64,000 nt of DNA from a virus. A program made the translations under genes and the position numbers. Every line of letters starts with the position of its first letter. Positions within the stretch are counted from its first letter, which is position 1. Shown piece by piece: positions 18,061-50,840 of this stretch. The DNA lies in the IMG/VR virus record IMGVR_UViG_3300024264_002047; one strand, given 5' to 3'. The notes below the pieces were generated by a model, which was not told the origin of the DNA, did not search any database, and saw only the letters and a list, made by a program, of their open reading frames with translations.

Positions 18061-18335
18061 GCTTGTCTCGTGACACAATATGCATTAAGCAATTCTTCGT
18101 CGGACATTTTCTTTCCGAACGTATGAATAAGTTTACCATTCTGAAAACGTTCGATATAACCAGCATTGTATTCAATGTCAGTTACACTCTTAGTCATATT
18201 AGCAGTATCGTCAGGACGATCATCGTAGTGCATAGAATCCATAGAATGTGAATGGATGCAAGCAGCACCACGAGACCATTCAAGCGCCTGTTCCATTATG
18301 GCAAAATCTTCAACCATCTTAGTATATTGTGTCAT
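18057..18335 (-). CDS. hypothetical protein
   Basis: ORF in operon. Confidence 0.55.
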   Translation of the reverse strand: MTQYTKMVEDFAIMEQALEWSRGAACIHSHSMDSMHYDDRPDDTANMTKSVTDIEYNAGYIERFQNGKLIHTFGKKMSDEELLNAYCVTRQA

Positions 18336-19615
18336 AGTTTTTCTCCTGGTTCAAAACCTCTAAAACATTTAAATCGCGGGAATCTCAAACTGTAAACTTC
18401 TTCCGAGTCTTGACTTATTGTTACAACATCAGCTCGTACTTCAACTAACTGACCAAGTACAGCGTCACGGTTATTCCAAATATCATCCCTGTTAGCATCG
18501 CTAAGACCTGTGCCAACATTAACCTTGATAAGTTTACCTTCGTCGGTACCTTCGCAAACAAGTGCTCCTGTGCTTCCTTCATTTTTACCAGTTCCTTCTT
18601 CAATATCTATTACTGTTAATGTTACTTCAATGTAAGGTTTCATTTTCAACCAACCGTAAGAACGTTTACATTCGTAGTAACCGTTCACAGGTTTAACCAT
18701 GATACCTTCGTATCCTTCTTCTATTGCTGTATTATTAATTGCTTTGAACTTATCAGCATCATCTTCAATATTAAGGACTGTATAGTCAGTTAAGACAATG
18801 CAATCTTTGAAGTATTCTGATCTTTCAAAGCCTTTCAATAATTCTTTTCTTTTAATAAGTGGTAATGAACTCTTTGCTGTTTTGAATTCGTCAAGAGGTA
18901 TAAAATCAAACAATGCAAAATAAGCATCAGTTGTTTCAGCACCTTCTTTACGATGTACTTGTTTCATTAGTGTTTGGAAATCAGCGGACATAACCTCACC
19001 ATCAAAGACAAGATCATCAAACATTTTATTGCTGAATGCTTCTTCGATATGTGGGAAGTTTTTGAGTTGTTTACCGTTTCGAGAATAAATCGTTGCGTTA
19101 GAATTTTCTACAATAATAATGGCTCTTACTCCATCATACTTATATTCTACAACGCAGTCTCCTGTAATCTTTTTAGGATTGTTGTCACCACTATGAGCAA
19201 GCATACAAGTGAATACAGGGATGGTTCCTTTCTTAACGTTATTGACTGTCTTGAGAGATACACCGCATCTAAGGTCTTTAATTAAGATTCTACGGTACCA
19301 ATCATTCCATTGGTCAATTGTTGACTGTAGAGATAAAGATAAGATCGCGTCTCGAGCAGCATTACCTGTCAATTCACGATTCTTTAATTGATCTGCAAGA
19401 TGATAGAACTCATCAGCAGTAATTCCTTCGCCTTGAGTATCAGAGTATGGAATATCAGCCACACCAAAGGTAATCATATTATCGAGACAATATAATAAAC
19501 CTTTGACTAGACCTTCATCATCAATATATTGAGATAACATATCTTCTTTATAGAGTCGACTGTTATCTCGCTCAAGTAACTGAATTAATTTCCAAGGATC
19601 TGTTTTCATGAACAA
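18332..19615 (-). CDS. lig: ATP-dependent DNA ligase
   Basis: EYKYDGVR, FDGEV, EGIMVK, WLKMK, SLRFPRF. Confidence 0.95.
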   Translation of the reverse strand: MFMKTDPWKLIQLLERDNSRLYKEDMLSQYIDDEGLVKGLLYCLDNMITFGVADIPYSDTQGEGITADEFYHLADQLKNRELTGNAARDAILSLSLQSTIDQWNDWYRRILIKDLRCGVSLKTVNNVKKGTIPVFTCMLAHSGDNNPKKITGDCVVEYKYDGVRAIIIVENSNATIYSRNGKQLKNFPHIEEAFSNKMFDDLVFDGEVMSADFQTLMKQVHRKEGAETTDAYFALFDFIPLDEFKTAKSSLPLIKRKELLKGFERSEYFKDCIVLTDYTVLNIEDDADKFKAINNTAIEEGYEGIMVKPVNGYYECKRSYGWLKMKPYIEVTLTVIDIEEGTGKNEGSTGALVCEGTDEGKLIKVNVGTGLSDANRDDIWNNRDAVLGQLVEVRADVVTISQDSEEVYSLRFPRFKCFRGFEPGEKL

Positions 19616-36714: not shown

Positions 36715-37005
36715 TTAACTACCGCAATTGCTAGCGGCTAATTTCTTTTTCTTTTCTGGCTCTTCCTCTATGGATTTCTCTGTAGTTTCTTCAGCCTTTT
36801 CGTTGTCTCCTTTCCAGTTCTTGTCAACGTAATCAAAGAATTCTTTTTTCTTTTCATCGCTTTCAAGTTCAGCTGGACTTTCGACTCCAAACTTTTTTAA
36901 ACATTTTTGAAAGAATTCTTGATATTCAGAATCCTCTTCATTTTGTAAACGAGACATGACCAATTGCTCAATCTTGCCTTCTATAATTTCTTTCCAGTTG
37001 GACAT
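36715..37005 (-). CDS. probable internal head protein
   Basis: MSNWKEIIE N-terminus; late promoter 37041-37048. Confidence 0.5.
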   Translation of the reverse strand: MSNWKEIIEGKIEQLVMSRLQNEEDSEYQEFFQKCLKKFGVESPAELESDEKKKEFFDYVDKNWKGDNEKAEETTEKSIEEEPEKKKKLAASNCGS

Positions 37006-37043
37006 TTTAATTTCCTTCTTAATATTAGTGATATACTGTTTAT

Positions 37044-37313
37044 TTATAACAGTTTCGTTATCCGAATCTGTAAATTATCAATACCTTTAATTAAACGATG
37101 GTATTCACCCTCTTCAATCTTAAATCTTACTCCTGGCTCTAATAATAAAGGTAAACAGTTTTCTGGTTGAAATTGCCAACCATTTCCTGATATTACTTCA
37201 ACTAAACGGTCTTCTTTATCTCTGTGCCAAACAAACTCCGACTGATCTTCATTAATATCAAATGTACGAATATCATCAAGATCCGTATATGGTTTACCAG
37301 AAATAACTACCAC
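37044..37313 (-). CDS. cupin-like hypothetical protein (start uncertain)
   Basis: VWHRDKEDR...GEYHRLIKG. Confidence 0.55.
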   Translation of the reverse strand: MVVISGKPYTDLDDIRTFDINEDQSEFVWHRDKEDRLVEVISGNGWQFQPENCLPLLLEPGVRFKIEEGEYHRLIKGIDNLQIRITKLL

Positions 37314-37665
37314 CTCCCTTGAGGCCAAGATCTTTTGCGTATTTAGGTAATCTACAGGCCCAGTATCCTGCAGACATTTTATCTGTTTTAGTATCGCAAT
37401 TGTGTCTGCTTGCGAAGTTACGAGCCGCGTCTCTATCGTTGATTTTAGCAGTAAGCCCGCCTTTCTCATCGCCGAACTCAATCTTTTTGATATTACCTGT
37501 GTCAGGGTTTCTAACATAAACAACATACTTTTTATTTCCGCTTGAACGTTTAGGGGTATTTAATTCTTGTTCTTCATCAAATTCAATCATCGGAGATTCT
37601 AAAGGAACAGTAACTCCTTCATATAATCCAAAACCTTCATGTTTCCACTCTGTAAATTTTTTCAT
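37294..37665 (-). CDS. probable internal head protein
   Basis: MKKFTEWKHE N-terminus; AGYWAC. Confidence 0.55.
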   Translation of the reverse strand: MKKFTEWKHEGFGLYEGVTVPLESPMIEFDEEQELNTPKRSSGNKKYVVYVRNPDTGNIKKIEFGDEKGGLTAKINDRDAARNFASRHNCDTKTDKMSAGYWACRLPKYAKDLGLKGGGSYFW

Positions 37666-39113
37666 TAGTGATCCGATTTGTCGTTTCTATCTGTTTTGTT
37701 TGATAATATAAATCGTCTGTTAGGATTCACCGCAATTTTAAACTTAGTCATTAACTTTCTATTCACTAACATTTCTGATGCAGTATCTTTTAATGACAAC
37801 GCGATTTCAGCAATATGTTTCTTGTTATTGAAAAAGATCTCATGTTCAATTACAGGTCTTGTATCAAATGCCTTCTGACCACGAGTTGGGTTTGAGACAT
37901 ATATTACTTCACTCTCAAACTTATAACCATTCTTTTCCCAAAATACCATTTTACCTTTTGTTTCCATTTTATCAACATGGAGCATACTTGCTTTTGCACT
38001 GTTACCAGAATCAAACTTTGCACGTACAGGATTCTTTTCCATACCTTTAAATATAATCGTTTCAATATAACCTGCTTCTTGTCTAAAGATTGGTCTTCTA
38101 TTAACATCCTTAGAAAAGAATTGTATAATTGTCTCTACAACTTTCTTATCAGATACTTTACCTAGTTTCTCTTCTGTCCAAGGATCATAACCTTCAAAGT
38201 GAGAACGAATACCTGGAGAACCATTTACTTCGATAATATAAGGATTGCCTTTCTTATCAACAAAATGATCTACTCCACAATATACAGCTCCTGTTGCTCT
38301 TGCGGCTGCTTTAATTACTGTGATCTCTTTCTTCGATAAATCGTATGGTTCAGTAGTTGCACCTTGGTGAACATTGTTTCTAAAGTCTTTGTTATCTGGT
38401 GCTTGTATTCTTTCTGCCGCAGCAATGATCTTACCACCTACAAGTAGAGTACGTATATCTGATTTCATTTCAAAGAATTCTTGTATTAACAAATCAGCAT
38501 CGTATTTCCATAACGATTGACATACACCTGTTAAAGATGACATACTATCAATCTTCATTACACCAACACCTTGAGTTCCTTTAAGTGTTTTAATAATAAC
38601 AGGGAACTTTCCACCAACTCGTTTATGAGCGTCTTCGATAGATTGTTCGTTGGGTATAGATGATGTTCTTGGAATCGGTATATTGTTACGACCTAACAAT
38701 AATGCGTTGGACATTTTGTTATCACAGACTAACATAGATTCTAAATCGTTAACAAGCAAAAAGCCAATATCTTGTAAGGAGGATATAAACGCTTGGGAGG
38801 AAAGCGTACCGATTGCTCCTGCTCTTACAAATACAATTGAGTTATGTGTTTCAATTTCAATATCTTTATCTTTGCCATCAACGTTACGAAGCTTTACAGT
38901 TCCGATGTCAATATCAGAGTCAGCAATCCACGATTTTGTTATATCAACGAAATCGTATTTTATATCTCTCTTAACAGAAACTTCTTCAACAATATCAGCA
39001 AAGGTTCCGTCGCCATCTCCTGTACCTAAGACGACAACGTGCAGCTTGTTATAAGGAACAATTTCTGCTTCCTCTTCAAGAGGGTCTCTTCTGTACTCAG
39101 ATATGGTTTTCAT
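37665..39113 (-). CDS. RimK-like ATP-grasp ligase fused to C-terminal retropepsin-like (RimB-like) protease
   Basis: CDNKMSN, PVIIKTLKGTQGVGV, QEFF, DIR, FRNNVHQG, GVD, IEVNGSPG; then RAKFDSGN...RPVI...LVNRK. Confidence 0.85.
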   Translation of the reverse strand: MKTISEYRRDPLEEEAEIVPYNKLHVVVLGTGDGDGTFADIVEEVSVKRDIKYDFVDITKSWIADSDIDIGTVKLRNVDGKDKDIEIETHNSIVFVRAGAIGTLSSQAFISSLQDIGFLLVNDLESMLVCDNKMSNALLLGRNNIPIPRTSSIPNEQSIEDAHKRVGGKFPVIIKTLKGTQGVGVMKIDSMSSLTGVCQSLWKYDADLLIQEFFEMKSDIRTLLVGGKIIAAAERIQAPDNKDFRNNVHQGATTEPYDLSKKEITVIKAAARATGAVYCGVDHFVDKKGNPYIIEVNGSPGIRSHFEGYDPWTEEKLGKVSDKKVVETIIQFFSKDVNRRPIFRQEAGYIETIIFKGMEKNPVRAKFDSGNSAKASMLHVDKMETKGKMVFWEKNGYKFESEVIYVSNPTRGQKAFDTRPVIEHEIFFNNKKHIAEIALSLKDTASEMLVNRKLMTKFKIAVNPNRRFILSNKTDRNDKSDH

Positions 39114-39118
39114 AATTT

Positions 39119-39147
39119 ATTATACAACATTAATGCTGCGATGTCAA
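39119..39147 (-). promoter_or_regulatory. sigma70 promoter, predicted leaderless start
   Basis: TTGACA-17-TATAAT, 5 nt, then ATG. Confidence 0.7.
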
Positions 39148-40377
39148 CTACTTCTTGCGCTTATTGGCAGGAAGAGATTTGTCTAATGCAGCTTCGACTT
39201 CTTTATATTGTCTGATGTATTGCATTGAAGGATACTTAGCCTTTTTCAGCTTTGCATATGCACTCTTTACAGCAGGATCTTTTGATTGTTCCATATCAGA
39301 GATTTCATATCTTGCGTTCATCTCTTCTAAGTCAGACTCGAACATTTTTTTATAACTAGAAACCCCTTCTTTAACTTCCTTGATTGGTCCAATGACTTTG
39401 CATTTGTACTTGGCGCAAATTTTCTTAACATCTCTGTCGTTTGCGAACTTAGTTAATGATGCAGTCTTACCAATAAATTCGATTGAAGCAGGACCTGTAT
39501 CTCCACCATCAAAACTAGAGATATGCATATTTCTAACTTTAGATACAACTTTATCCATTATACCCATTTCTTTTTGGTCGAAACCAAAATCGTCATCAAA
39601 CTTGTTAGAAGTATTACCTTTAGTTACTTCGATAGTTAAACGTGCTTCGCCACGACGGTTACGATCTTTGTAGTTCTTAAGATCTTTAATACCTTCATTT
39701 ACTTCTACGCTTTCTACTAAATCAGAATACATATCTTTAATATCAGAATCGTCATAATAGTAATGCTTAGTTAAAAAGTTTACAATATCTTTTGCTTGTC
39801 CAGTAACATCAGCAGTAGTATTACCAGTTTGCTTGATTTTAATTTTGAATAGCTTTTCAATTTTAGCAGTTAACTTTTTGTCGCCTACGTAATCAATATC
39901 AGCAATACCTTTTCCTGATTTAGCTTTAACAGCTTCATTGATAGTTTCGTCCATTGAAATAGTAACTTCTTCTCTATATAAATTGGGGTGCTTTTTCTTG
40001 GCATCCCTATCCATTTGTTGCATAATCTTCTTTTGTTCAGGAGTTGGCTTTCCTGCTAAATTCCAACCACCACCTTTCTTAAGCGCTTTAGTTCTTTTTC
40101 TAAACGCTGCTGCCTTTTTAGGATCAGTCTTATCTAATTTGCTAAGGTAATCTATATCATCCTGCCAAGGATCGGCAGCCTCAACCATACTTTCGTTATG
40201 CGGATAACCTTTTAATGGCTCCTTTGAAGGCACTAAAGCTTGCTTAATTTTTTCATAAGTTAGCTTATTGATTTTTTCTTTAAATTCTTTTGTTCTTGCA
40301 TCAAGACTTTTTTTGATCTCTACATCTAATCTTTCTTGCCTTGTTAATTCCTTTGACATTTTATCCTCCGAATTCAT
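39148..40377 (-). CDS. modular charged protein, probable internal head protein
   Basis: Modules separated by INE/VNE/LVE/LEE motifs. Confidence 0.55.
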   Translation of the reverse strand: MNSEDKMSKELTRQERLDVEIKKSLDARTKEFKEKINKLTYEKIKQALVPSKEPLKGYPHNESMVEAADPWQDDIDYLSKLDKTDPKKAAAFRKRTKALKKGGGWNLAGKPTPEQKKIMQQMDRDAKKKHPNLYREEVTISMDETINEAVKAKSGKGIADIDYVGDKKLTAKIEKLFKIKIKQTGNTTADVTGQAKDIVNFLTKHYYYDDSDIKDMYSDLVESVEVNEGIKDLKNYKDRNRRGEARLTIEVTKGNTSNKFDDDFGFDQKEMGIMDKVVSKVRNMHISSFDGGDTGPASIEFIGKTASLTKFANDRDVKKICAKYKCKVIGPIKEVKEGVSSYKKMFESDLEEMNARYEISDMEQSKDPAVKSAYAKLKKAKYPSMQYIRQYKEVEAALDKSLPANKRKK

Positions 40378-40894
40378 GTCCAGCGACCCGCTTCATTTGC
40401 TTTTCAAATTCTGCTTGATCGGGTTTAGTTTTATATAATTTGATTGATAGGTCATCTTTATCTTTGCCTTTGATGCGCCAATTATAACCTTGTTCTTTAT
40501 GTTCTGGTTTTGTTGTTTTAACAACTCGACGTTTATATCCGTCATCCCATGATTCTGAACCTTCTGATAACTGTTCATCAACCATTAAGGCAAGGACGTG
40601 GGAATCTAAACCAAATTGCTGTGCAATTTTGCCTGCATAGTAATCTTTACCATGACGACCTTTAGTTCCGTGTTTATACATGATTTCTTTTACTTTGGCA
40701 ACCGCTTGGCCGTATTTCTTTTTGAATATCGTATCAGCTGCTAACTTCTTAATTAACTGTGAAGTAGTCAATTCTTCCAACTCCTTGGATTCGGGTACAC
40801 AATTTGGAACGTCTTTGCCGTTCTTCTTTTTCATTCCAACTTGTTTGTATCCGTCCCAACACTTTTCAGTGACGAATTGGTTATAAGATAACAT
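40361..40894 (-). CDS. probable internal head protein
   Basis: MLSYNQFVTE, KCWDGYKQVG module, LEE/LSE junctions. Confidence 0.6.
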   Translation of the reverse strand: MLSYNQFVTEKCWDGYKQVGMKKKNGKDVPNCVPESKELEELTTSQLIKKLAADTIFKKKYGQAVAKVKEIMYKHGTKGRHGKDYYAGKIAQQFGLDSHVLALMVDEQLSEGSESWDDGYKRRVVKTTKPEHKEQGYNWRIKGKDKDDLSIKLYKTKPDQAEFEKQMKRVAGHEFGG

Positions 40895-40896
40895 AA

Positions 40897-41376
40897 TTAA
40901 CCTTTGTATGTTCCGTTGACGATATCACTTAATAATTTTTTAACTGCTGTTCTCGCGACTGCAGGACCAACTTTATATTTCTGTTCTAAACTTTTAGAGA
41001 CACCCATCAAACCAGTAATACCATCAGAACGACCATCTTTCATAAAGGCCATGATATCTTTTTCTAATTGTTTTTGATTTGGTAAACCTTCAGCAATCTG
41101 TTTATTGTTGGTACCTTCGTTAATAATACTATCAATGAAATCTTCTAATTCTTCGACGTCGTCAGTTTTGATTTCGCCGTTGTCCAATGCCCATTGCATT
41201 AGTTCGTCTTCGACTTTCTTTGGTAAATCTTTACCTCTTCGAAGAGCATCAATATCTCTACGGTTTTTAGTTATCAGTTTCTTCCAATCGCTATCTCTTG
41301 GATACATATTAATAACTTTCTGAATGTTTTCAGTAGTTAACCTGATCTCTGCCATTGCTTCAAATATGTATGACAT
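40897..41376 (-). CDS. probable internal head protein
   Basis: MSYIFEAMAE, INE/IAE junctions. Confidence 0.55.
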   Translation of the reverse strand: MSYIFEAMAEIRLTTENIQKVINMYPRDSDWKKLITKNRRDIDALRRGKDLPKKVEDELMQWALDNGEIKTDDVEELEDFIDSIINEGTNNKQIAEGLPNQKQLEKDIMAFMKDGRSDGITGLMGVSKSLEQKYKVGPAVARTAVKKLLSDIVNGTYKG

Positions 41377-42059
41377 TATCCGAACCTCTTCGCAAATGTT
41401 TTGAGATCAATTGTTTCAAAAGAACCAAACTCATCGGTTACTCTGTATCCAACTTTACCTTTAAATTCTACAGGTTTTGCTGAATAATATTTGTTGCCTT
41501 GTCTAAGACCACCGATCTCAGATCCGTAGAAACCAAGCTTTTTCATTTTAGGAGCAGCTTCTTCAAGTTCTTCGTCAAACATACCTGAATCTTTCATCAT
41601 CTTCAGAGCATCTTTCTTAGCTCTTTCCATATTACCTTTGTTCATCTTTTCAACAGCTTGCTTGATTAGCTTGAGTCGTTTTGCTTTATCCTTTTCAGAC
41701 ATTGCTTCTTCGATAGTTTCTTCTTCAACACCTTCAACACTTTCAACCTTTCTTGCGAATGAAGCAACAAATTGACCAGGACGGGCTTTAGGATACATTG
41801 CTTTAAATACAGATTCGTGTCCCATTACAAACGTAACGAGGTCTTCAAGAACAACAGTATCTAGTTTAGCCATATACTTTGCTGCATCTTTAAGTTTGTT
41901 TTGAGTTAGCAGTTTAGAGATGGCAAGAAAGTCTTTCTTATCTCCACCTGATTCTCGTTTTGCAGCATCAGAGATTTCTTTTGCTAACGCCTTTGTTTCT
42001 TTTGCGAGGTTCTCATTGATTGTATCAACGCCCTCTAATACTTGTCTAAAATTTTTCAT
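41376..42059 (-). CDS. probable internal head protein
   Basis: MKNFRQVLE, INE/IEE/LEE junctions. Confidence 0.55.
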   Translation of the reverse strand: MKNFRQVLEGVDTINENLAKETKALAKEISDAAKRESGGDKKDFLAISKLLTQNKLKDAAKYMAKLDTVVLEDLVTFVMGHESVFKAMYPKARPGQFVASFARKVESVEGVEEETIEEAMSEKDKAKRLKLIKQAVEKMNKGNMERAKKDALKMMKDSGMFDEELEEAAPKMKKLGFYGSEIGGLRQGNKYYSAKPVEFKGKVGYRVTDEFGSFETIDLKTFAKRFG

Positions 42060-42214
42060 TTGGGTTCCTGGTCCTTAAACTGTTTGAAAGTCTTTAATTT
42101 GTTTTCCCGCTTGACTTTTTGGTTCGGGGTATCTTTTTGAAGTTTGGCTCTTGCTTTATCAGTACCCCAATCACCAGCGCCGCCTTCTTCCTTAATATTA
42201 TTTATACGATCCAT
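42056..42214 (-). CDS. 52 aa hypothetical protein (not in ORF track)
   Basis: MDRINNIKEEGGAGDWGTDKARAKLQKDTPNQK...; overlaps both neighbours. Confidence 0.5.
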   Translation of the reverse strand: MDRINNIKEEGGAGDWGTDKARAKLQKDTPNQKVKRENKLKTFKQFKDQEPK

Positions 42215-43992
42215 TATTTAACTTTGTCGGCAAGATCCTTATCTGCCTTACCCCATGTTCCAGGTGATTTAGTAGCAAAACTATTAACTCTTGCTAGTCC
42301 CCATTGTACCGGAGTTGTTCCAGGTCTATGACCTGTTCTCCAAGCAGCAACACCACGATCAAACACTTTCTTTAAAATACCATAAGGCATTCCTGATTTC
42401 TCAGCTTTATCCTTTAATGATTTTTCAGGGTTTGATTTCTCGGATACGAACTCTACTTGTTCAATCAACTGTTCTATCTCGTCGATTCTTTGATCTGTTA
42501 TTTGAGATTCAATCACTGATCGTTGTTTCTCTAATGCTTCGGCTTCTCTTGCTTTGCCGTACATCTTAAATCTGTAATCGAAGTTTACTGTATTGTCTTG
42601 TCTTAATAATTGATGTGGTCTTTTTAAACCTGCACGTTCCATATTACGGTTAACTGCTTCACCAAACATTTTCTTAAATTTGTTTGAATGCTTAGATGGT
42701 TTTGTTTTTGCTTCTGCATCACCAGGTGCCTTATCGTAAGCATCAGGATTGTCATCGTCCATCTTTGACTTTTTATTAAAATGAGCTTGTCTTTTATCTT
42801 TAGTAGAACCACCTAGATCTTTATAATAACCAGGCTGTTGCTTTTGTTGTTTGGATTCTTTATCAGCTTCTTTTTGTAATCGTTCTTGAATAGATGCTGC
42901 TTTATATAAAGTTGAGTTTGTTTCTTCGTTAGCAGTTCTTAAAGCCTTTTGAACTTCAGGATGTTTTGATAGATTACGTTTGAGTTTATCAATTTCTTTA
43001 ACTGCGTAATTCATGTTACCTGCTAAATCCAAAGCAAGTTCAATACCTAACTTAACATTCTTATCTCTTGCAGCTGCTGATTTAGATTTTGGATTATTTT
43101 TATAATAAGTAGCAACTTCAGCGCCTGTTAGTTTTTGTTTGCCCATTGCAGACAACGGATCAACTTTACCAGCCTTAACTCTTTCAGCAAGGAATTGGTC
43201 AACTGCAAAGTTTAATGATTCGGATATACCTAGACCACTTCTAACATCTCGATATAAGTCCAATCTCATTCTATCGTTTCTTGTTGGAATTCCTTTTGTA
43301 AATAAATCAAGATCGCCATCAGCGGCTGCAGCTCTAATCTTACTTGCTGACATACCTGAAACATCATCACTATCAGGATCTCTTTCGCCTGCAGAAACAA
43401 CCTTAATAGAATTGAATGTATAATCCTTTCCATTATATTTGTTTAATAATGTTTCAAATTCTTTAACTCTATCTGAACCTACAACAAGAACAAGATCCTT
43501 ATATTTTGCTTTTTGTAATTCCTGTGCAACTTGTATAATTGTTTTTGCATTTGATTTAACGATTAATCTTTTACCAAAGAATGTTTGAGCATATTTGATT
43601 TTCTGATCGTATGTTAATGGATTCTTTTTAGCATCTTGAGTTTTTGATAGGTATACTAATGGAGTACCTTTTTCTGCGATTGCTGTTGATACTATCTTAT
43701 TAACTAGTTTCTCGTGGCCTACTGTTGGAGGATTCATTCTTCCAAACGTAATGACAGCTTTATCTTGAACAGCTTCGTCTAATCTCGGTTCAGTATCTAT
43801 AAACTTGTTTGCGTCAAAAGTCTTCGCGGAATCCTTCTTTATAATTCCTTTACCAGTATCTTGGTCTTTCTTTTTATCTTTGCGCTTTTTGATATCTTTA
43901 TTAGAAGAATCTTTTGACTGGTTGTCATCAGTGTAATCGTCGATAGATGCTCCCGCTTGTGACGTTGTATCTTTTTCGTTTAAGCGATCCAT
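42214..43992 (-). CDS. HIGH-superfamily (cytidylyltransferase-like) protein with modular C-terminal tail
   Basis: FGRMNPPTVGHEKL, NPLTYDQK, VVGSDR, GMSASKIR; tail with RGVAAWRTGHRPG. Confidence 0.8.
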   Translation of the reverse strand: MDRLNEKDTTSQAGASIDDYTDDNQSKDSSNKDIKKRKDKKKDQDTGKGIIKKDSAKTFDANKFIDTEPRLDEAVQDKAVITFGRMNPPTVGHEKLVNKIVSTAIAEKGTPLVYLSKTQDAKKNPLTYDQKIKYAQTFFGKRLIVKSNAKTIIQVAQELQKAKYKDLVLVVGSDRVKEFETLLNKYNGKDYTFNSIKVVSAGERDPDSDDVSGMSASKIRAAAADGDLDLFTKGIPTRNDRMRLDLYRDVRSGLGISESLNFAVDQFLAERVKAGKVDPLSAMGKQKLTGAEVATYYKNNPKSKSAAARDKNVKLGIELALDLAGNMNYAVKEIDKLKRNLSKHPEVQKALRTANEETNSTLYKAASIQERLQKEADKESKQQKQQPGYYKDLGGSTKDKRQAHFNKKSKMDDDNPDAYDKAPGDAEAKTKPSKHSNKFKKMFGEAVNRNMERAGLKRPHQLLRQDNTVNFDYRFKMYGKAREAEALEKQRSVIESQITDQRIDEIEQLIEQVEFVSEKSNPEKSLKDKAEKSGMPYGILKKVFDRGVAAWRTGHRPGTTPVQWGLARVNSFATKSPGTWGKADKDLADKVK

Positions 43993-44024: not shown

Positions 44025-44708
44025 TTATTTATAATAATTAGCAAAGGACTCGATAAATTCATAATTTACGTGAGCTGATTCGCTCCAAATCGTAGATTCT
44101 CTCAAATATCCAATAGCAGGTGTTGGCGACATGATTGCTAAAGGTATTTGAGTTGATCGTTGCCCTCGTATAAAGTATGCGTTATCCACTGCTCCTAATA
44201 TTCCTTTTTCTTCTATTTCGTGAATAAGGTTTTGTGCAGTTCGTTTGGTCATCATATATGCGTGTGCACCTTCATGACCATCTATGTTTATTATTTTTCG
44301 TTCTTGTTTATTACCTTCGATATAATTATATCCTAACTCTGATAGTTTATATCCTAATGTAATTAAATAGTTATCTGGTATTTTAATATCTGGTTTGTAA
44401 TACATTATAGCATCGTGTTCTAATACGATACCAACCGAATCTTCACCTTCGGCAATCTTTTTCCAAATAGCAGCATGACCTGCAGAACATGTATTTGCTT
44501 TATGATGCATATTTGGTTCAGCAACATGTTCCCACGGTTCGTCGAACTTCATTTTAATACCAGTTTTACACCAAGCCATACGACCAGTACAATGAGACCA
44601 ACCTTCAAAGTATTCCCAGTCCAAATCTATAAGATCACAAGAGTCAGAACAATTCTTTGCGTATTGTCTTGATATTGGATGGTCATGTGTTAATATGTAG
44701 GCCTTCAC
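44025..44708 (-). CDS. GT25-like glycosyltransferase
   Basis: CSAGHAAIWKKI, IVLEHDA, GAHAYMMT. Confidence 0.65.
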   Translation of the reverse strand: MKAYILTHDHPISRQYAKNCSDSCDLIDLDWEYFEGWSHCTGRMAWCKTGIKMKFDEPWEHVAEPNMHHKANTCSAGHAAIWKKIAEGEDSVGIVLEHDAIMYYKPDIKIPDNYLITLGYKLSELGYNYIEGNKQERKIINIDGHEGAHAYMMTKRTAQNLIHEIEEKGILGAVDNAYFIRGQRSTQIPLAIMSPTPAIGYLRESTIWSESAHVNYEFIESFANYYK

Positions 44709-45424
44709 TTAAACTTAATTTCCTTATAACCATGTTCTAAGCAAAACTCGTTAATTGAATCTACATATACATCTCTTGGCGGACCGAAGTCATATAACAT
44801 TTCTGCAAACGAAGAATGCTTACGAGTATTTTCGGCTGTCTTGTGTTCTACGTATTCTATGTCATCATAATGTTTTTCTAAGTATTCATATAATAACTTA
44901 TCTTGATCTTCGATTCTATATGTAACGTCAGGTTTTATGTTTCGTATGATTGTGTTAAATCCACATATACTACGAATAGCATTTTCAATTGGATTCTTAT
45001 TTTGCATTCCACCAAGATGGGCCTGCCTGTATCTATGAGATATAAAGTCTATCCTTTCTACGGGCTCTGTTTCAACGACAAAAGATGATCCATCTCTTTC
45101 AAAGGTAGATTGTATAATATGTGGTGTTTCTGTATATACAATAGATGCTAATGATTCTCTTGGGTTTCTTACATTATATATTAGATGATTATATTCAGGT
45201 CTGCGTTTAAATTCTTTCTGCCATAAGTAACTGCCTGTTGGGAAACTTAGAAACCAAGATACGATTCCGTCTTTGCCGAGAGTTTCATGGCCAACATCTA
45301 AACCCCACTTACTTAATATCTTAGATGTAAATCCGGTTCCAGTTCTTGGATGTCCTACTCCTAGTATAGGAACAAACTTGCATTCATCACCCATCTTATA
45401 ATTAATTCTTGTGCGCTTGCGCAA
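44705..45424 (-). CDS. sulfotransferase-like protein
   Basis: GHPRTGTGF (PAPS 5'-binding loop-like), VRNPRESLAS, YRIED. Confidence 0.6.
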   Translation of the reverse strand: MRKRTRINYKMGDECKFVPILGVGHPRTGTGFTSKILSKWGLDVGHETLGKDGIVSWFLSFPTGSYLWQKEFKRRPEYNHLIYNVRNPRESLASIVYTETPHIIQSTFERDGSSFVVETEPVERIDFISHRYRQAHLGGMQNKNPIENAIRSICGFNTIIRNIKPDVTYRIEDQDKLLYEYLEKHYDDIEYVEHKTAENTRKHSSFAEMLYDFGPPRDVYVDSINEFCLEHGYKEIKFK

Positions 45425-45425
45425 T

Positions 45426-46088
45426 TTAAACTCCTTGCGAATAATCTTTTAACCAAGGCATACCGCCATCAAGGGCTGTTGAACCCCAATGTTGTTCGCA
45501 ATATATTTTCCCAGGTCCATCGTACCGTGGATAGCCTGGTCTGAACCATTGTGGTATAAACATATATGATGGGAATATATGTAATAGATGACGATGATTA
45601 TCTAATAACCTTGCCAAGTAAAAGTTGCCTGTTGATTCGTGTGGCTTTGGATCCAATTGATTTGGTTTGAGTTGATGAAGGTTTCTTAATATCTTATCGA
45701 GGAATTCGTTACCTGGGTTTGCTGCCATCACTGGTGATATAGATCTCGGTATAACTGATTCGCATTCAAATACAGTATATGCTAAGTTTGGATCTTCGAC
45801 AAATAATTCCGAAACGTCGTGATAACATTCTGAATCTGCTTCAGGCCAGAATCCGCCTCTTTCGTATATTAACTCATAACGAATTAAATCAGCAACACCT
45901 GCCCATGTACCTCGTCTGTAGTACTCTTCAATCAAATGTTGATTATACCATTTACGTTTATGTAGCATATCATCTGTGAACACGCTGTATTCCCAGTCAG
46001 GCATTTTTTCTTGCCAAGTGTTCATCCACTTTAATGGAGCAGGATTAGGTCCTATCCAAATGTGGGTCATTTTCTTTTCGATATTCAT
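45426..46088 (-). CDS. DXD glycosyltransferase (GT32/OCH1-like)
   Basis: HIWIG, ADLIRYELIYERGGFWPEAD. Confidence 0.75.
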   Translation of the reverse strand: MNIEKKMTHIWIGPNPAPLKWMNTWQEKMPDWEYSVFTDDMLHKRKWYNQHLIEEYYRRGTWAGVADLIRYELIYERGGFWPEADSECYHDVSELFVEDPNLAYTVFECESVIPRSISPVMAANPGNEFLDKILRNLHQLKPNQLDPKPHESTGNFYLARLLDNHRHLLHIFPSYMFIPQWFRPGYPRYDGPGKIYCEQHWGSTALDGGMPWLKDYSQGV

Positions 46089-46618
46089 AGTCTTTTAATA
46101 TATCTCATTGCGGCCGATGCGTTGTCGCTGGAGTCTAAATTTATATATCCAACGTTCAGTCGGTCAAATTGTTCCATGATTGCTTCGTCAATTAAAATAC
46201 ACTCAGCTTCGTCTTGTGCTCTACCTTGTTGTTCAAAACCTTCAGGTCTTGTTAACATAAAGTTAATATTATGATTATATAAACAATAACATTCAAAAGC
46301 CATTTTGTCAATTAGATCTGAATAGATTGCTTCACCGTATCTCTCACGATATATTGGACTTAAGAGTACAGGACTATCGGTAATGATATAATCTACCTTA
46401 TCGGATAATCGTAATATTTTTCTGTGTTGATGTCCGAGTACCCAAAGTTGATCTGCCAACATTGGTATGTTACCTTCCCATACGCACTCTTTAGCAAACT
46501 CATCTGTCAGTTCGACATTATAGCCTGCGATTTTCATTTGATAGAATAAACCCGCGGCAGCGGTGGACTTACCTGATCCTGGCCCGCCGTAGAAGTTTAT
46601 GACTGTGACGTCTTTCAT
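46085..46618 (-). CDS. P-loop kinase/ATPase (NadR/AAA_28-like)
   Basis: FYGGPGSGKST, ITDSP, QGRAQ. Confidence 0.75.
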   Translation of the reverse strand: MKDVTVINFYGGPGSGKSTAAAGLFYQMKIAGYNVELTDEFAKECVWEGNIPMLADQLWVLGHQHRKILRLSDKVDYIITDSPVLLSPIYRERYGEAIYSDLIDKMAFECYCLYNHNINFMLTRPEGFEQQGRAQDEAECILIDEAIMEQFDRLNVGYINLDSSDNASAAMRYIKRL

Positions 46619-46651: not shown

Positions 46652-46680
46652 ATTATAACAAACTTAGGTCTTAATGTCAA
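46652..46680 (-). promoter_or_regulatory. sigma70-type promoter
   Basis: TTGACA-17-TATAAT heading the glycan cluster. Confidence 0.85.
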
Positions 46681-46916
46681 CTGATTCCTTGAGAGAAACG
46701 ATAATCATAAAAGTCTTTATTGATTTCTCCTGCGATTGCTGTCTTACCTGTTTGTCGACATTTAATATATGTCTTTTGAGTTCCGCCGCCTGGTTTAGTA
46801 AATGTTCTAACGCCTGCGGCTATTACACCTGGAGTATCAGCATATGTATCTGCAGCGGTTGCCGCGTTATCATATTCCCAAGCTCCATTGCTTCCTTGTA
46901 CTGTTACGAATGCCAT
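46677..46916 (-). CDS. hypothetical protein
   Basis: ORF in late operon. Confidence 0.55.
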   Translation of the reverse strand: MAFVTVQGSNGAWEYDNAATAADTYADTPGVIAAGVRTFTKPGGGTQKTYIKCRQTGKTAIAGEINKDFYDYRFSQGIS

Positions 46917-47290
46917 TACTCGTACCCTGCTTCTTTAGTGAGTTTCATAATAACGTGGAATGGTCCATCGCCAACAACTCGTATATCTCTATTAGAATAC
47001 ACGTTATCTACAAAACCTTTATATTCGTGTGAACCAGAATTTACAAAATAATAATGACCGTGAGCTGTAGATCCGTCCCATCTAGAAATGTCTATATGTT
47101 TATTGGTTTTGCAGCCCCAATATATTTCTTTAATCGTTACTACTGCACCGTTAACCGATTGATAAGGATGTACAAGGTTTGCTAATAAAATATCAACAGT
47201 ATCACCTGCGGAGTCAGTTACATAAATCTTTACGACTGCTTCTGTTTTTGTTCTTTTTAAGTAATGAATTTCGGACATTATTTTTGCCAC
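46916..47290 (-). CDS. hypothetical (likely virion) protein
   Basis: ORF in late operon. Confidence 0.55.
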   Translation of the reverse strand: MAKIMSEIHYLKRTKTEAVVKIYVTDSAGDTVDILLANLVHPYQSVNGAVVTIKEIYWGCKTNKHIDISRWDGSTAHGHYYFVNSGSHEYKGFVDNVYSNRDIRVVGDGPFHVIMKLTKEAGYE

Positions 47291-48513
47291 CCTTTAATAT
47301 ATTGATCTGAGAAGTTAGCAAGACTGAATCCCATACGATCCACGATCTTTAATGCGTTCTTACCATAATGGTCAATCGCAACAAATCCTTCTTGTCCTGT
47401 TACTTCAAATCCTTTTGTTGTTTTAAGAAGTGTTTTAATACCATCAACTTTATTTAACTTATCTATGATAACATATTTCATATCAACTAATAAATCGTAT
47501 AGAGTAAAGATGGCTTCTAACTTTGTCTTGTTCTTTGGATCGGCAAATATTTGTAATGTCGCAGTTGCCTTATCCATTTGTGTTTTCTTACCAGCAGGAG
47601 TCTTACGCTTATCTGCTTCTTTCTGATAATATTGTTGTATGTATCTTTGGAGATCAGCAACGAATGGTTTAACTGAACCGATACGCTGTCCTTCACGAAC
47701 CTTTGTATTAATAAATGTATTGATCTTTTGATTTAAATCTGCGTTTGTTCCGAGTTCGCCTAATATCTTTGCATCAATTGTTCTGAATAGTGAACCTGCT
47801 TTTGATAACATGGCTGTAAGAGAATCGGTCTCTGCCTTTGTCATTGTTGCTGTACCTGACTTATCTTCAAACGTTGCATCTACATGCCATACTGATTTAG
47901 TATTATTAAGTTTTGTTGAGATCGCCTGACCAAAACTTGCAGACATTGTCTCAAGAGTTGATCCTGAGTATGTTGTGTGCCAGACCACACCGATTTTGGA
48001 TCCTGATATTTTTTTACCAAGTCCTGATGTTTTAGGTACCGCGTAAACAATGGTATTAGGATGGAAAGTAACACACGGTTCTCCATCAATAGTTTCCGTT
48101 TTAAGATCATCATTCGTATATAAGAAATCACCTTGTACTACTCCTTCAATTCCAAGCTTGGCAAATTCTTTCAAAGCAACTTTAAATTTGCTATTGAGTT
48201 CACCGCTTAGATCATTATCTATTTCTGCATCAGTTTTATATAATTTTGGAGTTTTATTAAATACTCCTTTCTTTGCCACAAAGAACTTTCCATCGGCAGG
48301 ATCAGTCCCAGCAAAGATCGCAGGCGCGCCATCCCATTTAGTTGTAATACTAACAGGAGCTTTTGTATTACCCGATAACATATCTCGGATATTACGAATA
48401 TAATTAATTACGTTTCTTGTTCCTTTTACACCACCATCAATAACAGCATCTTCTAAATGCGTCATATGTAAATTGGCATCTGCCTCAGCAAGATATTGGT
48501 TATACGACTTCAT
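47278..48513 (-). CDS. DUF6267-like protein with ligase-type nucleotidyltransferase motifs and capsid-targeting-like N-terminus
   Basis: MKSYNQYLAE; TKWDG (I), VQGDF (III), EGFV (IV), LKIVDR (V). Confidence 0.65.
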   Translation of the reverse strand: MKSYNQYLAEADANLHMTHLEDAVIDGGVKGTRNVINYIRNIRDMLSGNTKAPVSITTKWDGAPAIFAGTDPADGKFFVAKKGVFNKTPKLYKTDAEIDNDLSGELNSKFKVALKEFAKLGIEGVVQGDFLYTNDDLKTETIDGEPCVTFHPNTIVYAVPKTSGLGKKISGSKIGVVWHTTYSGSTLETMSASFGQAISTKLNNTKSVWHVDATFEDKSGTATMTKAETDSLTAMLSKAGSLFRTIDAKILGELGTNADLNQKINTFINTKVREGQRIGSVKPFVADLQRYIQQYYQKEADKRKTPAGKKTQMDKATATLQIFADPKNKTKLEAIFTLYDLLVDMKYVIIDKLNKVDGIKTLLKTTKGFEVTGQEGFVAIDHYGKNALKIVDRMGFSLANFSDQYIKGWQK

Positions 48514-49373
48514 TTATTTTTCAACCTCAGGTAGCCTTTGTGTTTAAAATCCAATTCTACTTTCTTTTTAACAATTGCCGCTATATCGTTAATTGTCTTA
48601 ACATCTTTGCGTTGTACATCTTTCATTAACTTGTCTTTTACATCTTTAAGAATAATATCAATAATACCACTACGATCCATAGCAAGATCGGCTTCATTAA
48701 TATTTAAATGTTCTTCTGCGTAAGACTTAATCCATTTCTTTGCTTTAGGATTGGTGATATTAGATTTGGCAAATTTAGCTGCCCACTTATATCCTGCCAT
48801 AATTCCTTTATTACTATCAGCATCTTGAGAATTATCAATTACTTGGAAACTAGAACCAAACATACTTTGGAACGAGCCGATGTTCTTTTGTACTTCTTTC
48901 CATAAAGTAACAACCTGAGTACTTGGCAATGATCTTGGTCTTGCGTCATTACGAGCAATCGCAGTATCTAAATCTGTATTAACATAAATCATTCCAACGT
49001 CATAACCAAGCGATCTTAATTCTTTTATTTGACCTTGTATCTTTGTTACATTCTTACCTGTACCATCAATAACTAAACCGAGACGACCAGTAATATAACC
49101 TTGCATTTTAATAGCAGTGAGTTTCTTTGCCTTGTCTCTTATTTCCTGTCCTTGTGTTGAAAAGATAGTATCAGGATCCATTATTAGTTTAGCTTTGTTC
49201 ATTGCCAACTCAAACGCATCATCTGAATTCACTACTTTAAATCCTAGGGCAGGTAATCCTGTTCTACCAACAATAAACGATTTGCCTGAGCCAGGACCGC
49301 CTGCTAAAAAGATTGCTTTGAATATCGCAGGATCGTTTGGTCCTTCGTCAACAAATGTTTTATAACTCTTCAT
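48510..49373 (-). CDS. PNK/zeta-type P-loop kinase with capsid-targeting-like N-terminus
   Basis: MKSYKTFVDE; AGGPGSGKS, NSDD, VIDGT, ARNDARPR. Confidence 0.75.
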   Translation of the reverse strand: MKSYKTFVDEGPNDPAIFKAIFLAGGPGSGKSFIVGRTGLPALGFKVVNSDDAFELAMNKAKLIMDPDTIFSTQGQEIRDKAKKLTAIKMQGYITGRLGLVIDGTGKNVTKIQGQIKELRSLGYDVGMIYVNTDLDTAIARNDARPRSLPSTQVVTLWKEVQKNIGSFQSMFGSSFQVIDNSQDADSNKGIMAGYKWAAKFAKSNITNPKAKKWIKSYAEEHLNINEADLAMDRSGIIDIILKDVKDKLMKDVQRKDVKTINDIAAIVKKKVELDFKHKGYLRLKNK

Positions 49374-50797
49374 AAAGAAATACTTCCTGGTATACCTGTT
49401 GCTGATTTAACATCGACTCCTAAGAATTTCATTAGAGAGGCAAACATTTTCTTTCCCATCTTTGCGATCTTTTTAAATACAGCAGTTATTTTAGCAAGAA
49501 CTTTTGTAACAGCGCCTTTAACTTTATTTACAAACGCCTGACCTTTGTTCTTTGCCCAATCACCTGCTTTCTTTAACATATCAAGTGGTCCTTCTGAAAT
49601 AAAGTCTTCGGTTAACATTAAACCGTCGAGTTGTTCCATTTCAGATAATACAATACCTCTTAGTGTTTCTGATTCTTTAATACCTAAACGTAATGCTGAA
49701 TAGGCAGGAGCACCACCCCCACCAGATTTAAATGAAACGACAGGTTTAACTGTTTGCGCATATTTAACAATGATTGGATCTTTGATGCTGTTTATTGGTT
49801 GTACTTCAATATCACCGGTTAATGTAAACTTACCTAATAGATTAGCTGCGGCAGGAGAACCTGCACTACCAAACTTATGATTACCAGTTGCTGCCTCAAG
49901 TACAACATGTTTACTAAATAAAGCATTGACTGCTGTATCTTGATTGATAAGACCTTCGAGCATTTTAGTTAATTCTCTATTGCCTTTATCCTTTGCTTGG
50001 AAATCAATCACTGCGTCAGTCTTTACACCAGCCTTTGATTGTTTACGTAAATCACCAGCAGCAACTCTTGATACTAAGGAAGACATATTCGTTTCCATTG
50101 TTTCAACAAGTTTAGTTGCCATTGCTCTATCTTCTCCCATCTCAGACATTGCTGCCTTGACGATTGCGATAGCTTCTGATTTAGTTGGTGATGCAAGTTG
50201 AGATCCACCTGCTTTCTTTAATGAAATCTTTTCTCTAAAATCAGATGAAGCAATATCAGTCTTTGGTGTTTTATTCTTAGCACCTGATTCTTTCCATATA
50301 GGTCCTAAACTAATAGATCCCATACCTCGTCCAGTTTGTACTAATTGTTTTGCTTTTAATTGACCGTTGAAGTTACCTGCGATTTTATCAGCAACATCCA
50401 TATAGTTACCAAACTTTTCTGCTACGGCAATTGTTTCTGGATCTGTTGATTTACCATTGAGTTTATTATAAGCGTATACAATTACATCTTCCCATTCCGC
50501 ACCAGTAGGTGGAGAACCTGAAGCCTTCACATGAGTAAAGGAACTTGATTTGAAAGAAACGGATCCTTTGATATGAATCACTTTACCATTTGGAGCCTTT
50601 AGGTATTTTTCTGCAGGGCCGTCACCATAGGTATAGTCGGCTTTGGTTGCTGCTATAATCTCGAAGTGATCTCCTGGATTATAACCTAAAGCAGAAAGTT
50701 CTTTGAAGCCTTTTCCATTATAAGCAACTTTATGTCCTATAACGTAGTCAGGCTTTAGAAAACTAGCTTCTGCTAAAAAAGAATTGAAGCTCTTCAT
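49370..50797 (-). CDS. protein with capsid-targeting-like N-terminus and possible PD-(D/E)XK nuclease core
   Basis: MKSFNSFLAE; EWE...PKTDI...ISLKK. Confidence 0.5.
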   Translation of the reverse strand: MKSFNSFLAEASFLKPDYVIGHKVAYNGKGFKELSALGYNPGDHFEIIAATKADYTYGDGPAEKYLKAPNGKVIHIKGSVSFKSSSFTHVKASGSPPTGAEWEDVIVYAYNKLNGKSTDPETIAVAEKFGNYMDVADKIAGNFNGQLKAKQLVQTGRGMGSISLGPIWKESGAKNKTPKTDIASSDFREKISLKKAGGSQLASPTKSEAIAIVKAAMSEMGEDRAMATKLVETMETNMSSLVSRVAAGDLRKQSKAGVKTDAVIDFQAKDKGNRELTKMLEGLINQDTAVNALFSKHVVLEAATGNHKFGSAGSPAAANLLGKFTLTGDIEVQPINSIKDPIIVKYAQTVKPVVSFKSGGGGAPAYSALRLGIKESETLRGIVLSEMEQLDGLMLTEDFISEGPLDMLKKAGDWAKNKGQAFVNKVKGAVTKVLAKITAVFKKIAKMGKKMFASLMKFLGVDVKSATGIPGSISL

Positions 50798-50832
50798 GTT
50801 TACCCTATTAAAATTAGTATATATCTAGAGTT

Positions 50833-50840
50833 TATTTATA
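50833..50840 (-). promoter_or_regulatory. T4-type late promoter
   Basis: TATAAATA heading the 50797-46677 operon. Confidence 0.8.

Follow-up and report, generated by a model that had tools for sequence, protein, structure and literature searches.

Three predicted nucleic-acid enzymes with T4-type capsid-targeting leaders share a late operon in a marine T4-like phage

Introduction

Why should three neighbouring genes of a phage, whose mature products are unrelated, all begin with nearly the same ten codons' worth of protein? The question is raised by a locus in IMG/VR virus record IMGVR_UViG_3300024264_002047, of which one 64,000-nucleotide stretch (hereafter, the window) was analysed. The source is a T4-like marine myophage of the pelagimyophage type; at this locus its closest cultured relatives are Methylophilales phage Melnitz, Pelagibacter phage HTVC008M and the cyanomyoviruses. 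The three genes encode, in order of transcription, (i) a 475-amino-acid (aa) protein with a predicted endonuclease fold, (ii) a 287-aa P-loop kinase, and (iii) a 411-aa member of the family DUF6267 with a predicted ligase fold. Our best explanation, offered tentatively, is a late operon whose three genes are coupled in translation and encode basic nucleic-acid enzymes, each bearing a T4-type capsid-targeting propeptide when made. A preliminary description of the locus, made from the sequence, had proposed a pre-packaged system for healing and sealing nucleic acids on entry into the host; below, the parts of that proposal are taken up together with the evidence that bears on them.

Results

Three overlapping genes behind one late promoter

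The 475-aa gene is the first of the operon (50797..49370), the 287-aa gene the second (49373..48510), and the 411-aa gene the third (48513..47278), all on the minus strand. Both junctions among them are 4-nt overlaps of the ATGA type. A T4-type late promoter box, TATAAATA, lies at 50840..50833 (minus strand), 35 nt upstream of the first ATG, and the Melnitz homologue has the identical box in the identical place. The box stands directly 3' of the stop codon of a gp41-type helicase gene, which is itself preceded by a UvsX-like gene. This bears out the arrangement originally described, in which a single late promoter serves three overlapping genes. Enrichment of TATAAATA within the window was considered and dropped: 11 copies were found where 8.3 are expected, which is not significant. 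Ten of the 11 copies lie on the coding strand.

A T4-type leader on each protein

The N-termini read MKSFNSFLAE (475 aa; 50797..50768), MKSYKTFVDE (287 aa; 49373..49344) and MKSYNQYLAE (411 aa; 48513..48484; all minus strand), precisely as first reported, and share the form M-K-S-[FY]-x-x-[FY]-[LV]-x-E. The T4 sequence to which they had been likened, MKTYQEFIAE, is confirmed: it is encoded twice in the T4 genome, at the ipII/ipIII locus, while the N-terminus of T4 Alt is MELITELFDE. In the T4 leader, residues 4 and 7 serve mainly for targeting, and residues 8 and 10 for processing (PMC9026906). The three leaders agree with the T4 capsid-targeting sequence at positions 1, 2, 4, 7, 8 and 10; both targeting positions are Phe or Tyr in all three proteins, and a gp21-type cleavage site, (L/I/V)-x-E, ends at residue 10 of each (L-A-E, V-D-E and L-A-E, respectively). 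The strict leader pattern occurs in the window only at these three adjacent genes, against a chance expectation, estimated from amino-acid frequencies, of well under 0.01 occurrences. Whole-gene duplication cannot explain the shared 10-mer, because the three mature sequences are unrelated.

Conservation among homologues points the same way. Glu10 is invariant in the alignments of the nuclease and kinase families. The nuclease-family leader ranges from 10 to about 35 residues, always ending x-E immediately before (A/G)S(I/F)(L/M)KPDY. For DUF6267, 121 diverged homologues (33–53% identity) were compared: 69 carry a leader, 20 begin directly at a conserved HxxHxED core, and 44 fit the strict 10-mer M-x-x-[FYWL]-x-x-[FYWLIVM]-[LIVMFTSA]-x-E, ending in Glu, nearly all of these with Phe or Tyr at positions 4 and 7 and Leu or Ile at position 8. 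Finally, a metagenomic fusion of the kinase to DUF6267 (L012:956-2866, protein P0364) keeps an internal MGKTFTDFITE at the junction of the two domains. Judged from these alignments, the leader is a separable, detachable module, since its presence and length vary among homologues and an internal copy persists at a fusion junction. The fusion suggests, in addition, that some cargo may be made as a polyprotein and cut apart in the prohead.

The operon thus invites comparison with the T4 genes for IPI–III and Alt, proteins that enter the head by way of the capsid-targeting sequence and are trimmed by the gp21 prohead protease. The likeness extends to the 10-residue leader itself (aromatic at positions 4 and 7, aliphatic at 8, Glu at 10), the late TATAAATA promoter, the basic mature proteins (isoelectric points (pI) of 9.5, 9.7 and 9.2 for the 475-, 287- and 411-aa proteins, respectively), and the use of one leader on unrelated proteins. 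The difference lies in the cargo: small restriction inhibitors and an ADP-ribosyltransferase in T4, three predicted nucleic-acid enzymes here. Packaging and gp21 cleavage of the window proteins are, moreover, predictions.

Leader-like N-termini were also seen on further late open reading frames (ORFs) in 36715-42059 (minus strand): MLSYNQFVTE (ORF 40361-40894), MKNFRQVLE (ORF 41376-42059), MKKFTEWKHE (ORF 37294-37665), and MKTISEYRRDPLEE (ORF 37665-39113), the last on a product with a RimK-like ATP-grasp domain. On this evidence, the cargo packaged by the phage may be both large and varied.

Virion proteomes of related phages

Published virion proteomes of relatives allow the leader to be set beside detection in the particle. 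In the S-SM1, S-PM2 and Syn9 data of Sullivan et al., a flag for proteomic data marks the cytidylyltransferase group T4-GC190, peptides of which are reported in the S-SM1 virion (PMC3037559). The S-SM1 member begins MKKFSAFLNE and the Syn9 member MKKFSAFLSE. Next to this gene, the DUF6267 protein (T4-GC71) starts MCDSTL.CYNNG; it has neither a leader nor a proteomic flag. The same split is seen in S-SZBM1, where the cytidylyltransferase (MRFRQFIIE) was detected in the virion and the leaderless DUF6267 protein (MAKNTHLEHLED) was not. Four published cases thus divide by leader: the two cytidylyltransferases with leaders were detected, and the two DUF6267 copies without one (S-SM1 and S-SZBM1) were not. 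Likewise, the PKN8 kinase of S-CRM01, reported in virions (PMC10665884), begins MISFDQFLSE. NMNAT-like proteins were found in the virions of S-SCSM1, S-CBWM1 and S-CREM2, and homologues of the NMNAT-like protein of the window (described below), which bear leaders resembling capsid-targeting sequences, have been detected in virions in at least five cyanophage proteomes (PMC3037559, PMC9146016, PMC9602691, PMC10665884). A gp21-type (Peptidase_S77) prohead protease is encoded by all four relatives tested (Melnitz, HTVC008M, S-SZBM1 and S-CRM01).

From the leaders, and by analogy with these proteomes, the three window proteins are probably packaged. Because each bears the ten-residue tag with which T4 loads its head, they are probably also injected with the DNA.

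The DUF6267 proteins of S-SM1 and Syn9 (L013:1796-2770 and L014:1272-2234) are about 90 residues shorter than the window protein. They carry a Cys-containing MCDSTL(S/A)CYNNG in the place of the leader, and keep KWDG/KYDG, EGFV and K-(L/I)-V.

A predicted ligase fold in the DUF6267 protein

The 411-aa protein is a full-length match to Pfam DUF6267 (PF19782; E = 1.5e-107) and also matches phrog_455; neither family has been assigned a function. The family is very large: the scored candidates alone fall into over 8,000 clusters at 90% identity, and clustering at 50% identity leaves 2,498. The ligase-type motifs listed in the preliminary description (TKWDG, VQGDF, EGFV and LKIVDR) are present and conserved over the 121 homologues. 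Residues K59, D61, G376, K389, H19, G69, N153, Y157, G175, H179 and N400 do not vary, and conservation is 90% or higher at G62, Q127-G128-D129, E375 and D392-R393. Among these residues are motif I (K59-W-D-G), a motif III-like element (Q127-G-D129), motif IIIa (N153/Y157), motif IV (E375-G376) and motif V (K389), which follow one another in that order on consecutive strands of the AlphaFold model (predicted local distance difference test score (pLDDT) 93.9). The protein consists of the leader, an N-terminal helix with HxxHxED, and a ligase-type nucleotidyltransferase domain that is split before motif IV by a helical bundle of 130 residues (about 226–353); there is no OB domain.

Two structure searches were informative: an exhaustive VIA-align comparison and a search of the AFDB clusters. 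In the former, the first seven non-helical matches are all RNA ligases (Z 8.3–7.0; 169–208 residues aligned), including Naegleria NgrRnl (Z 8.3), the Trl1 ligase domain (Z 7.9), T4 Rnl2 (Z 7.8), T4 Rnl1 (Z 7.3) and archaeal Rnl3 (Z 7.0), with DNA ligases at Z 6.9 and below. In the latter, the model matches an 'RNA ligase domain-containing protein' (E = 2.2e-5). The ligase fold that had been anticipated is supported by both; Foldseek against the PDB returned no significant match. Sequence methods are silent. In Pfam, DUF6267 alone is matched at E values up to 1, with none of the curated ligase families (RNA_ligase, RNA_lig_T4_1, DNA_ligase_A_M); sequence and profile searches of the PDB returned no ligase; and hhalign of the DUF6267 profile against T4 Rnl1 is not significant, though it lands EGFV...K389 on EGYV...K240.

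When set beside the RNA ligases NgrRnl/Rnl5, T4 Rnl2, T4 Rnl1 and Trl1, DUF6267 shares the nucleotidyltransferase fold (Z 8.3–7.3), the KxDG lysine, the EG of motif IV, the motif V lysine and the lack of an OB domain. The E375-to-K389 spacing is 14 residues, close to the 13 residues between E227 and K240 of T4 Rnl1. DUF6267 differs from these enzymes in showing no detectable sequence-profile similarity to them, in the 130-residue bundle (which falls between motifs IIIa and IV), in the N-terminal HxxHxED helix, in having GD for GE in motif III, and in the replacement of the second motif V lysine by D-R. On its model, then, the 411-aa protein is a ligase-fold, RNA-ligase-like protein outside any named ligase family; we keep it out of the named families because sequence profiles connect it to none. 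K59 is predicted to be the adenylylated lysine of a divergent covalent nucleotidyltransferase of the ATP-dependent RNA-ligase type. A literature search found no paper on the function of DUF6267, nor on a packaged ligase.

A kinase with the predicted active-site layout of T4 Pnk

The 287-aa protein has a Walker A motif (GGPGSGKS), a candidate catalytic Asp in NSDD, a lid (RNDARPR), and a basic C-terminal tail of 60 aa. Across its family, G25-K31, N49-S50-D51, R141-N142, R145 and R147 are invariant. The resemblance to T4 Pnk noted at the outset is reproduced by hhalign: the family profile aligns with T4 PseT (93.5%, E = 2.3e-7, 140 columns; residues 19–167 on 3–149), pairing GGPGSGKS with GCPGSGKS, NSDD with NRDD, and RNDARP-R with RNSKRGTK. 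The alignment runs end to end over the kinase domain, taking in the P-loop, the catalytic Asp and the RNxxR lid. Beyond it the two proteins part: Pfam, PHROG and NCBIfam find no HAD-type 3'-phosphatase domain in the 287-aa kinase, and its last 60 residues look helical and basic instead. T4 Pnk, furthermore, has no leader and works early, in the cytoplasm.

The kinase resembles zeta toxin and adenylate kinase just as strongly. Zeta_toxin (2.2e-7) and AAA_33 (5e-7) match about equally in Pfam, the former (PF06414) at 31.0 bits against a gathering score of 22.3. The protein matches phrog_12810 and, weakly, the polynucleotide kinase family phrog_505; a PDB profile search gave a marginal and mixed set—adenylate kinase, zeta toxin, PSTK and T4 Pnk—all at E = 0.015–0.2. 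The Pfam match does not separate zeta-toxin from Pnk-like membership. For the fold and the arrangement of the active site, as the alignment predicts them, 'Pnk-like' is a fair label.

A predicted restriction-endonuclease fold in the first protein

The 475-aa protein comprises the leader, an SH3/FeoA-like domain (about 15–95), a core with an MspI/HinP1I-like endonuclease fold (about 94–400), and a basic amphipathic tail (model pLDDT 79). Foldseek likens its N-terminal barrel to FeoA (probability 0.98). Pfam, PHROG and NCBIfam hold no family for the protein, Foldseek against the PDB gave no significant match for the model, and PDB sequence and profile searches returned nothing useful. VIA-align of the core ranked MspI (Z 8.3, 173 residues aligned) and HinP1I (Z 7.1) as the top two of 48,161 chains, with the restriction endonucleases HhaI, PDB 3ndh and NhoI further down.

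The PKTD...SLK core pointed out in the preliminary description holds up: E103, T177-P-K-T-D181, E189 and S192-L-K194 are invariant in the family, and the predicted fold is of the PD-(D/E)XK type. In the expected hairpin, D181 and K194 are invariant and the middle position is an equally invariant Ser192. The protein resembles MspI and HinP1I, monomeric type II restriction endonucleases and the best structural matches to residues 94–474, in having an Asp at the start of a strand and xK in the next hairpin strand (D181...S192-L-K194), and a conserved Glu in the preceding helix (E103). It is unlike them in lacking a partner methyltransferase, in the Ser at the middle catalytic position, and in carrying an SH3-like N-domain, a basic amphipathic C-tail and a capsid-targeting leader. 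E189 or E103 could supply the missing acidic residue.

A second conserved stretch, LTEDF(I/L)xE-GP, covers residues 395–404 (49586-49615, minus strand), with E397 and E402 invariant. It resembles the end of the kinase leader, VDE-GP, and precedes the tail (73 aa, pI 10.4). Cleavage at this stretch, a candidate second protease site, may release a peptide.

Synteny, fusions and a separate DNA ligase

The order UvsX, gp41, (nuclease-like), DUF6267, ..., cytidylyltransferase recurs in Melnitz, HTVC008M, S-SZBM1, S-CRM01, S-SM1 and Syn9. In HTVC008M, the nuclease-like gp126, DUF6267 gp127, kinase gp129 and cytidyltransferase gp130 cluster after gp41. Gene calls from Tara place proteins of 475, 286 and 410 aa at consecutive, overlapping coordinates in relatives with a common longest contig of 212 kb, their products 58–91% identical. 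In other lineages, DUF6267 adjoins ART-PolyVal ADP-ribosyltransferases, or tail-tube and portal genes.

The window has an NMNAT-like gene as well: a late gene at 42214..43992 (minus strand), with its own TATAAATA at 44033..44026, encodes a 592-aa protein with NMNAT-like (CTP_transf_like) and DUF5824 domains. In other phages and metagenomes, DUF6267 is fused to the kinase and, in both orders, to NMNAT-like domains; fusions that join the nuclease-like domain to an NMNAT-like one occur too. By fusion and synteny elsewhere, the 592-aa protein is the putative partner of the operon. Gene fusion as proof of a shared pathway was weakened as an argument, given that one fusion retains an internal leader.

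Could DUF6267 simply be the DNA ligase of these phages? Among 26 genomes, gp30 DNA ligase is present in all 10 non-cyanophages and in none of the 16 cyanophages, and DUF6267 (T4-GC71) shows the reverse, 16 of 16 cyanophages and none of the 10 others (PMC3037559). No canonical DNA ligase was seen in Melnitz, HTVC008M, S-SZBM1 or S-SM1. For the present phage, replacement of gp30 by DUF6267 was rejected: a canonical, OB-domain-containing DNA ligase of the ATP-dependent kind is encoded in the window itself (18332-19615, minus strand, TTG start; PF01068 at 7.5e-26 plus OB_2; 26% identity to T4 gp30). S-CRM01, too, has both genes. DUF6267 therefore does something else in this phage, and the balance tips somewhat towards RNA or a specialised substrate.

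The end of the operon and its neighbours

As first drawn, the operon covered 47278-50840. Its three genes stand; its end probably lies farther downstream. Without any gap, two leaderless ORFs follow the 411-aa gene on the same strand, one of 120 aa (47278..46916) and one of 79 aa (46916..46677). Family searches gave no match for either, and no terminator is predicted inside the unit. The two ORFs (46677..47278) are probably the tail of the operon's late transcription unit. The next unit begins with a perfect sigma-70 promoter, TTGACA-17-TATAAT with a TG extension, at 46680..46652 (minus strand).

Behind that promoter lies a second P-loop kinase gene (46085-46618, minus strand; AAA_28, PHROG 'thymidylate kinase'), an early gene wedged between two late blocks. 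Three further ORFs lie between the late blocks (44025-44708, 44705-45424 and 45426-46088, minus strand), of which the first and third match glycosyltransferase families (GT25-like; DXD sugar-binding type).

Discussion

What might a phage do with such a set? The explanation we favour, at somewhat less than even confidence, is a capsid-targeted, injected set consisting of a nuclease, a Pnk-like kinase and a ligase-like enzyme. The leader would dock each protein on the scaffolding core of the prohead, and a gp21-type prohead protease would cut after Glu10. The mature proteins (pI 9.2–9.7) would remain with the packaged DNA and accompany it into the cell. There, already at the onset of infection, the kinase and the ligase-like enzyme would most plausibly work as a pair on broken polynucleotides, healing 5' ends and sealing them; the nuclease would trim ends for this pair or, separately, attack host or competitor nucleic acid; and the module would work alongside the virion-borne NMNAT-like enzyme. 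As the substrate of the pair, RNA is slightly favoured over DNA, because the phage has its own DNA ligase, the ligase-like protein has no OB domain, and its nearest folds are RNA ligases.

Several observations weigh against this explanation. The proteomes cover relatives whose DUF6267 is leaderless, which makes their support for packaging indirect; that cyanophage DUF6267 is both leaderless and undetected in virions means, moreover, that the function of the family needs no packaging. Structural Z scores of 7–8, for DUF6267 and the nuclease alike, are 'middling' on the tool's own scale, and sequence profiles connect neither protein to a ligase or nuclease family. At its middle catalytic position the nuclease has Ser rather than Asp, Glu, Asn or Gln, and the kinase is as similar to zeta toxin and adenylate kinase as to Pnk. 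Searches of Pfam, PHROG and NCBIfam revealed neither a 3'-phosphatase nor a cyclic phosphodiesterase in the kinase or elsewhere in the operon. The fusions, lastly, may only reflect shared cargo status, by polyprotein logic, and not shared chemistry.

Among the alternatives, the likeliest is that the three proteins are independent injected effectors that share delivery and nothing else. It is still unlikely, with a weight similar to that of the tRNA-repair model discussed next. The nuclease would act on host or competitor DNA, the kinase, as a zeta-toxin-like enzyme, would phosphorylate a small molecule (UDP-GlcNAc or NAD+), and the ligase-like enzyme, together with the NMNAT-like enzyme, would nucleotidylate some other target. 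The set would then be an unfused, T4-style counterpart of the polyvalent proteins and MuF-fused effectors, which are likewise enzymes delivered with the invading DNA, and likewise include zeta-like kinases, nucleases and variable fusions of cargo domains (Iyer et al. 2017; PMC5512222). Zeta-like kinases fused to MuF head proteins are read there as injected cell-wall effectors. The operon differs in distributing its domains over separate genes, each with a T4-type leader, where a polyvalent protein is one giant chain; a term search of PMC5512222 found no ligase-fold domain among the delivered domains. The Zeta_toxin match above its gathering score (31 bits against 22.3), the presence of this kinase domain in the 'minor head protein' family phrog_16619, the ART-PolyVal genes beside DUF6267 elsewhere, the lineage-to-lineage variation of its neighbours, and the fusion of DUF6267, nuclease-like and NMNAT-like domains in various orders, as cargo polyproteins would be, all fit this account. 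It sits poorly with the alignment of the kinase to T4 Pnk over the whole catalytic domain, with a ligase fold and invariant nucleotidyltransferase residues that point to polynucleotide ends, and with a tight translational coupling that recurs in relatives 58–91% identical.

A narrower possibility, which we consider distinctly unlikely, is that proposed in the preliminary description: a pre-packaged equivalent of T4 Pnk and Rnl1 that mends host tRNAs cut by PrrC- or RloC-like anticodon nucleases before any phage gene is expressed. The Pnk alignment, the RNA-ligase folds nearest to the ligase-like protein (T4 Rnl1, T4 Rnl2 and Trl1 among them), the separate DNA ligase, and the existence of a kinase–ligase fusion, as in bacterial Pnkp and fungal Trl1, speak for it. 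One difficulty is at the 3' end. The 287-aa kinase has a helical tail where a healing domain would be, the operon offers no substitute, and since Pfam, PHROG and NCBIfam revealed no 3'-end-healing enzyme there, the 2',3'-cyclic-phosphate ends left by anticodon nucleases are unsealable by the three proteins alone. Further, tRNA repair gives the nuclease no role and leaves the NMNAT-like link unexplained, anticodon-nuclease defences are not known in the presumed SAR11-type host, and a few tens of injected molecules would face a large tRNA pool. Of the heal-and-seal proposal, then, the late operon, the leaders, the ligase fold, the Pnk alignment and the endonuclease fold are supported; the specific tRNA repair kit is not.

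Least probable of all, and in our view improbable, is that the three are unpackaged, late cytoplasmic enzymes of DNA maturation or repair (processing and sealing nicks before packaging) whose N-termini are a relic of duplication or a feature of translation initiation: the position directly after the UvsX and gp41 replication and recombination genes in all relatives, the leaderless cyanophage DUF6267 that is absent from virion proteomes, and the reciprocal distribution of DUF6267 and canonical ligases would suit it, but the phage has a canonical DNA ligase (as S-CRM01 has both genes), the leaders match the T4 sequence precisely at the functional positions, leader presence tracks virion detection in the four published cases, and the mature sequences are unrelated.

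The favoured explanation, an injected nuclease, kinase and ligase-like set, can be extended to the family as a whole, as a proposal that we regard as unlikely in its entirety: DUF6267 would be a new and very abundant polynucleotide ligase family of ocean phages, working with a virion-borne NMNAT-like enzyme and, in pelagimyophage-type phages, loaded into the capsid with a Pnk-like kinase and a nuclease of restriction-endonuclease fold as an end-repair or anti-defence kit that acts before phage gene expression. Its chemistry could be, for example, sealing that depends on NAD+, which would be remade on the spot from NMN and ATP.

Few unannotated genes of marine T4-like phages are as common as DUF6267 and its neighbours; all 16 cyanomyoviruses of the classic comparison carry the family, as do cultured phages of SAR11 and OM43. 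With a predicted ligase fold and named catalytic residues, it is now testable. More broadly, whether an accessory enzyme travels in the virion appears to be predictable from a T4-type leader, and with this rule the injected cargo of thousands of uncultured phages could be listed from their genomes. If the kinase, ligase-like enzyme and nuclease are indeed injected, they would be the first pre-packaged phage enzymes of nucleic-acid end repair found in our literature search, and would bear on how phages whose hosts are streamlined ocean bacteria come through the opening minutes of infection.

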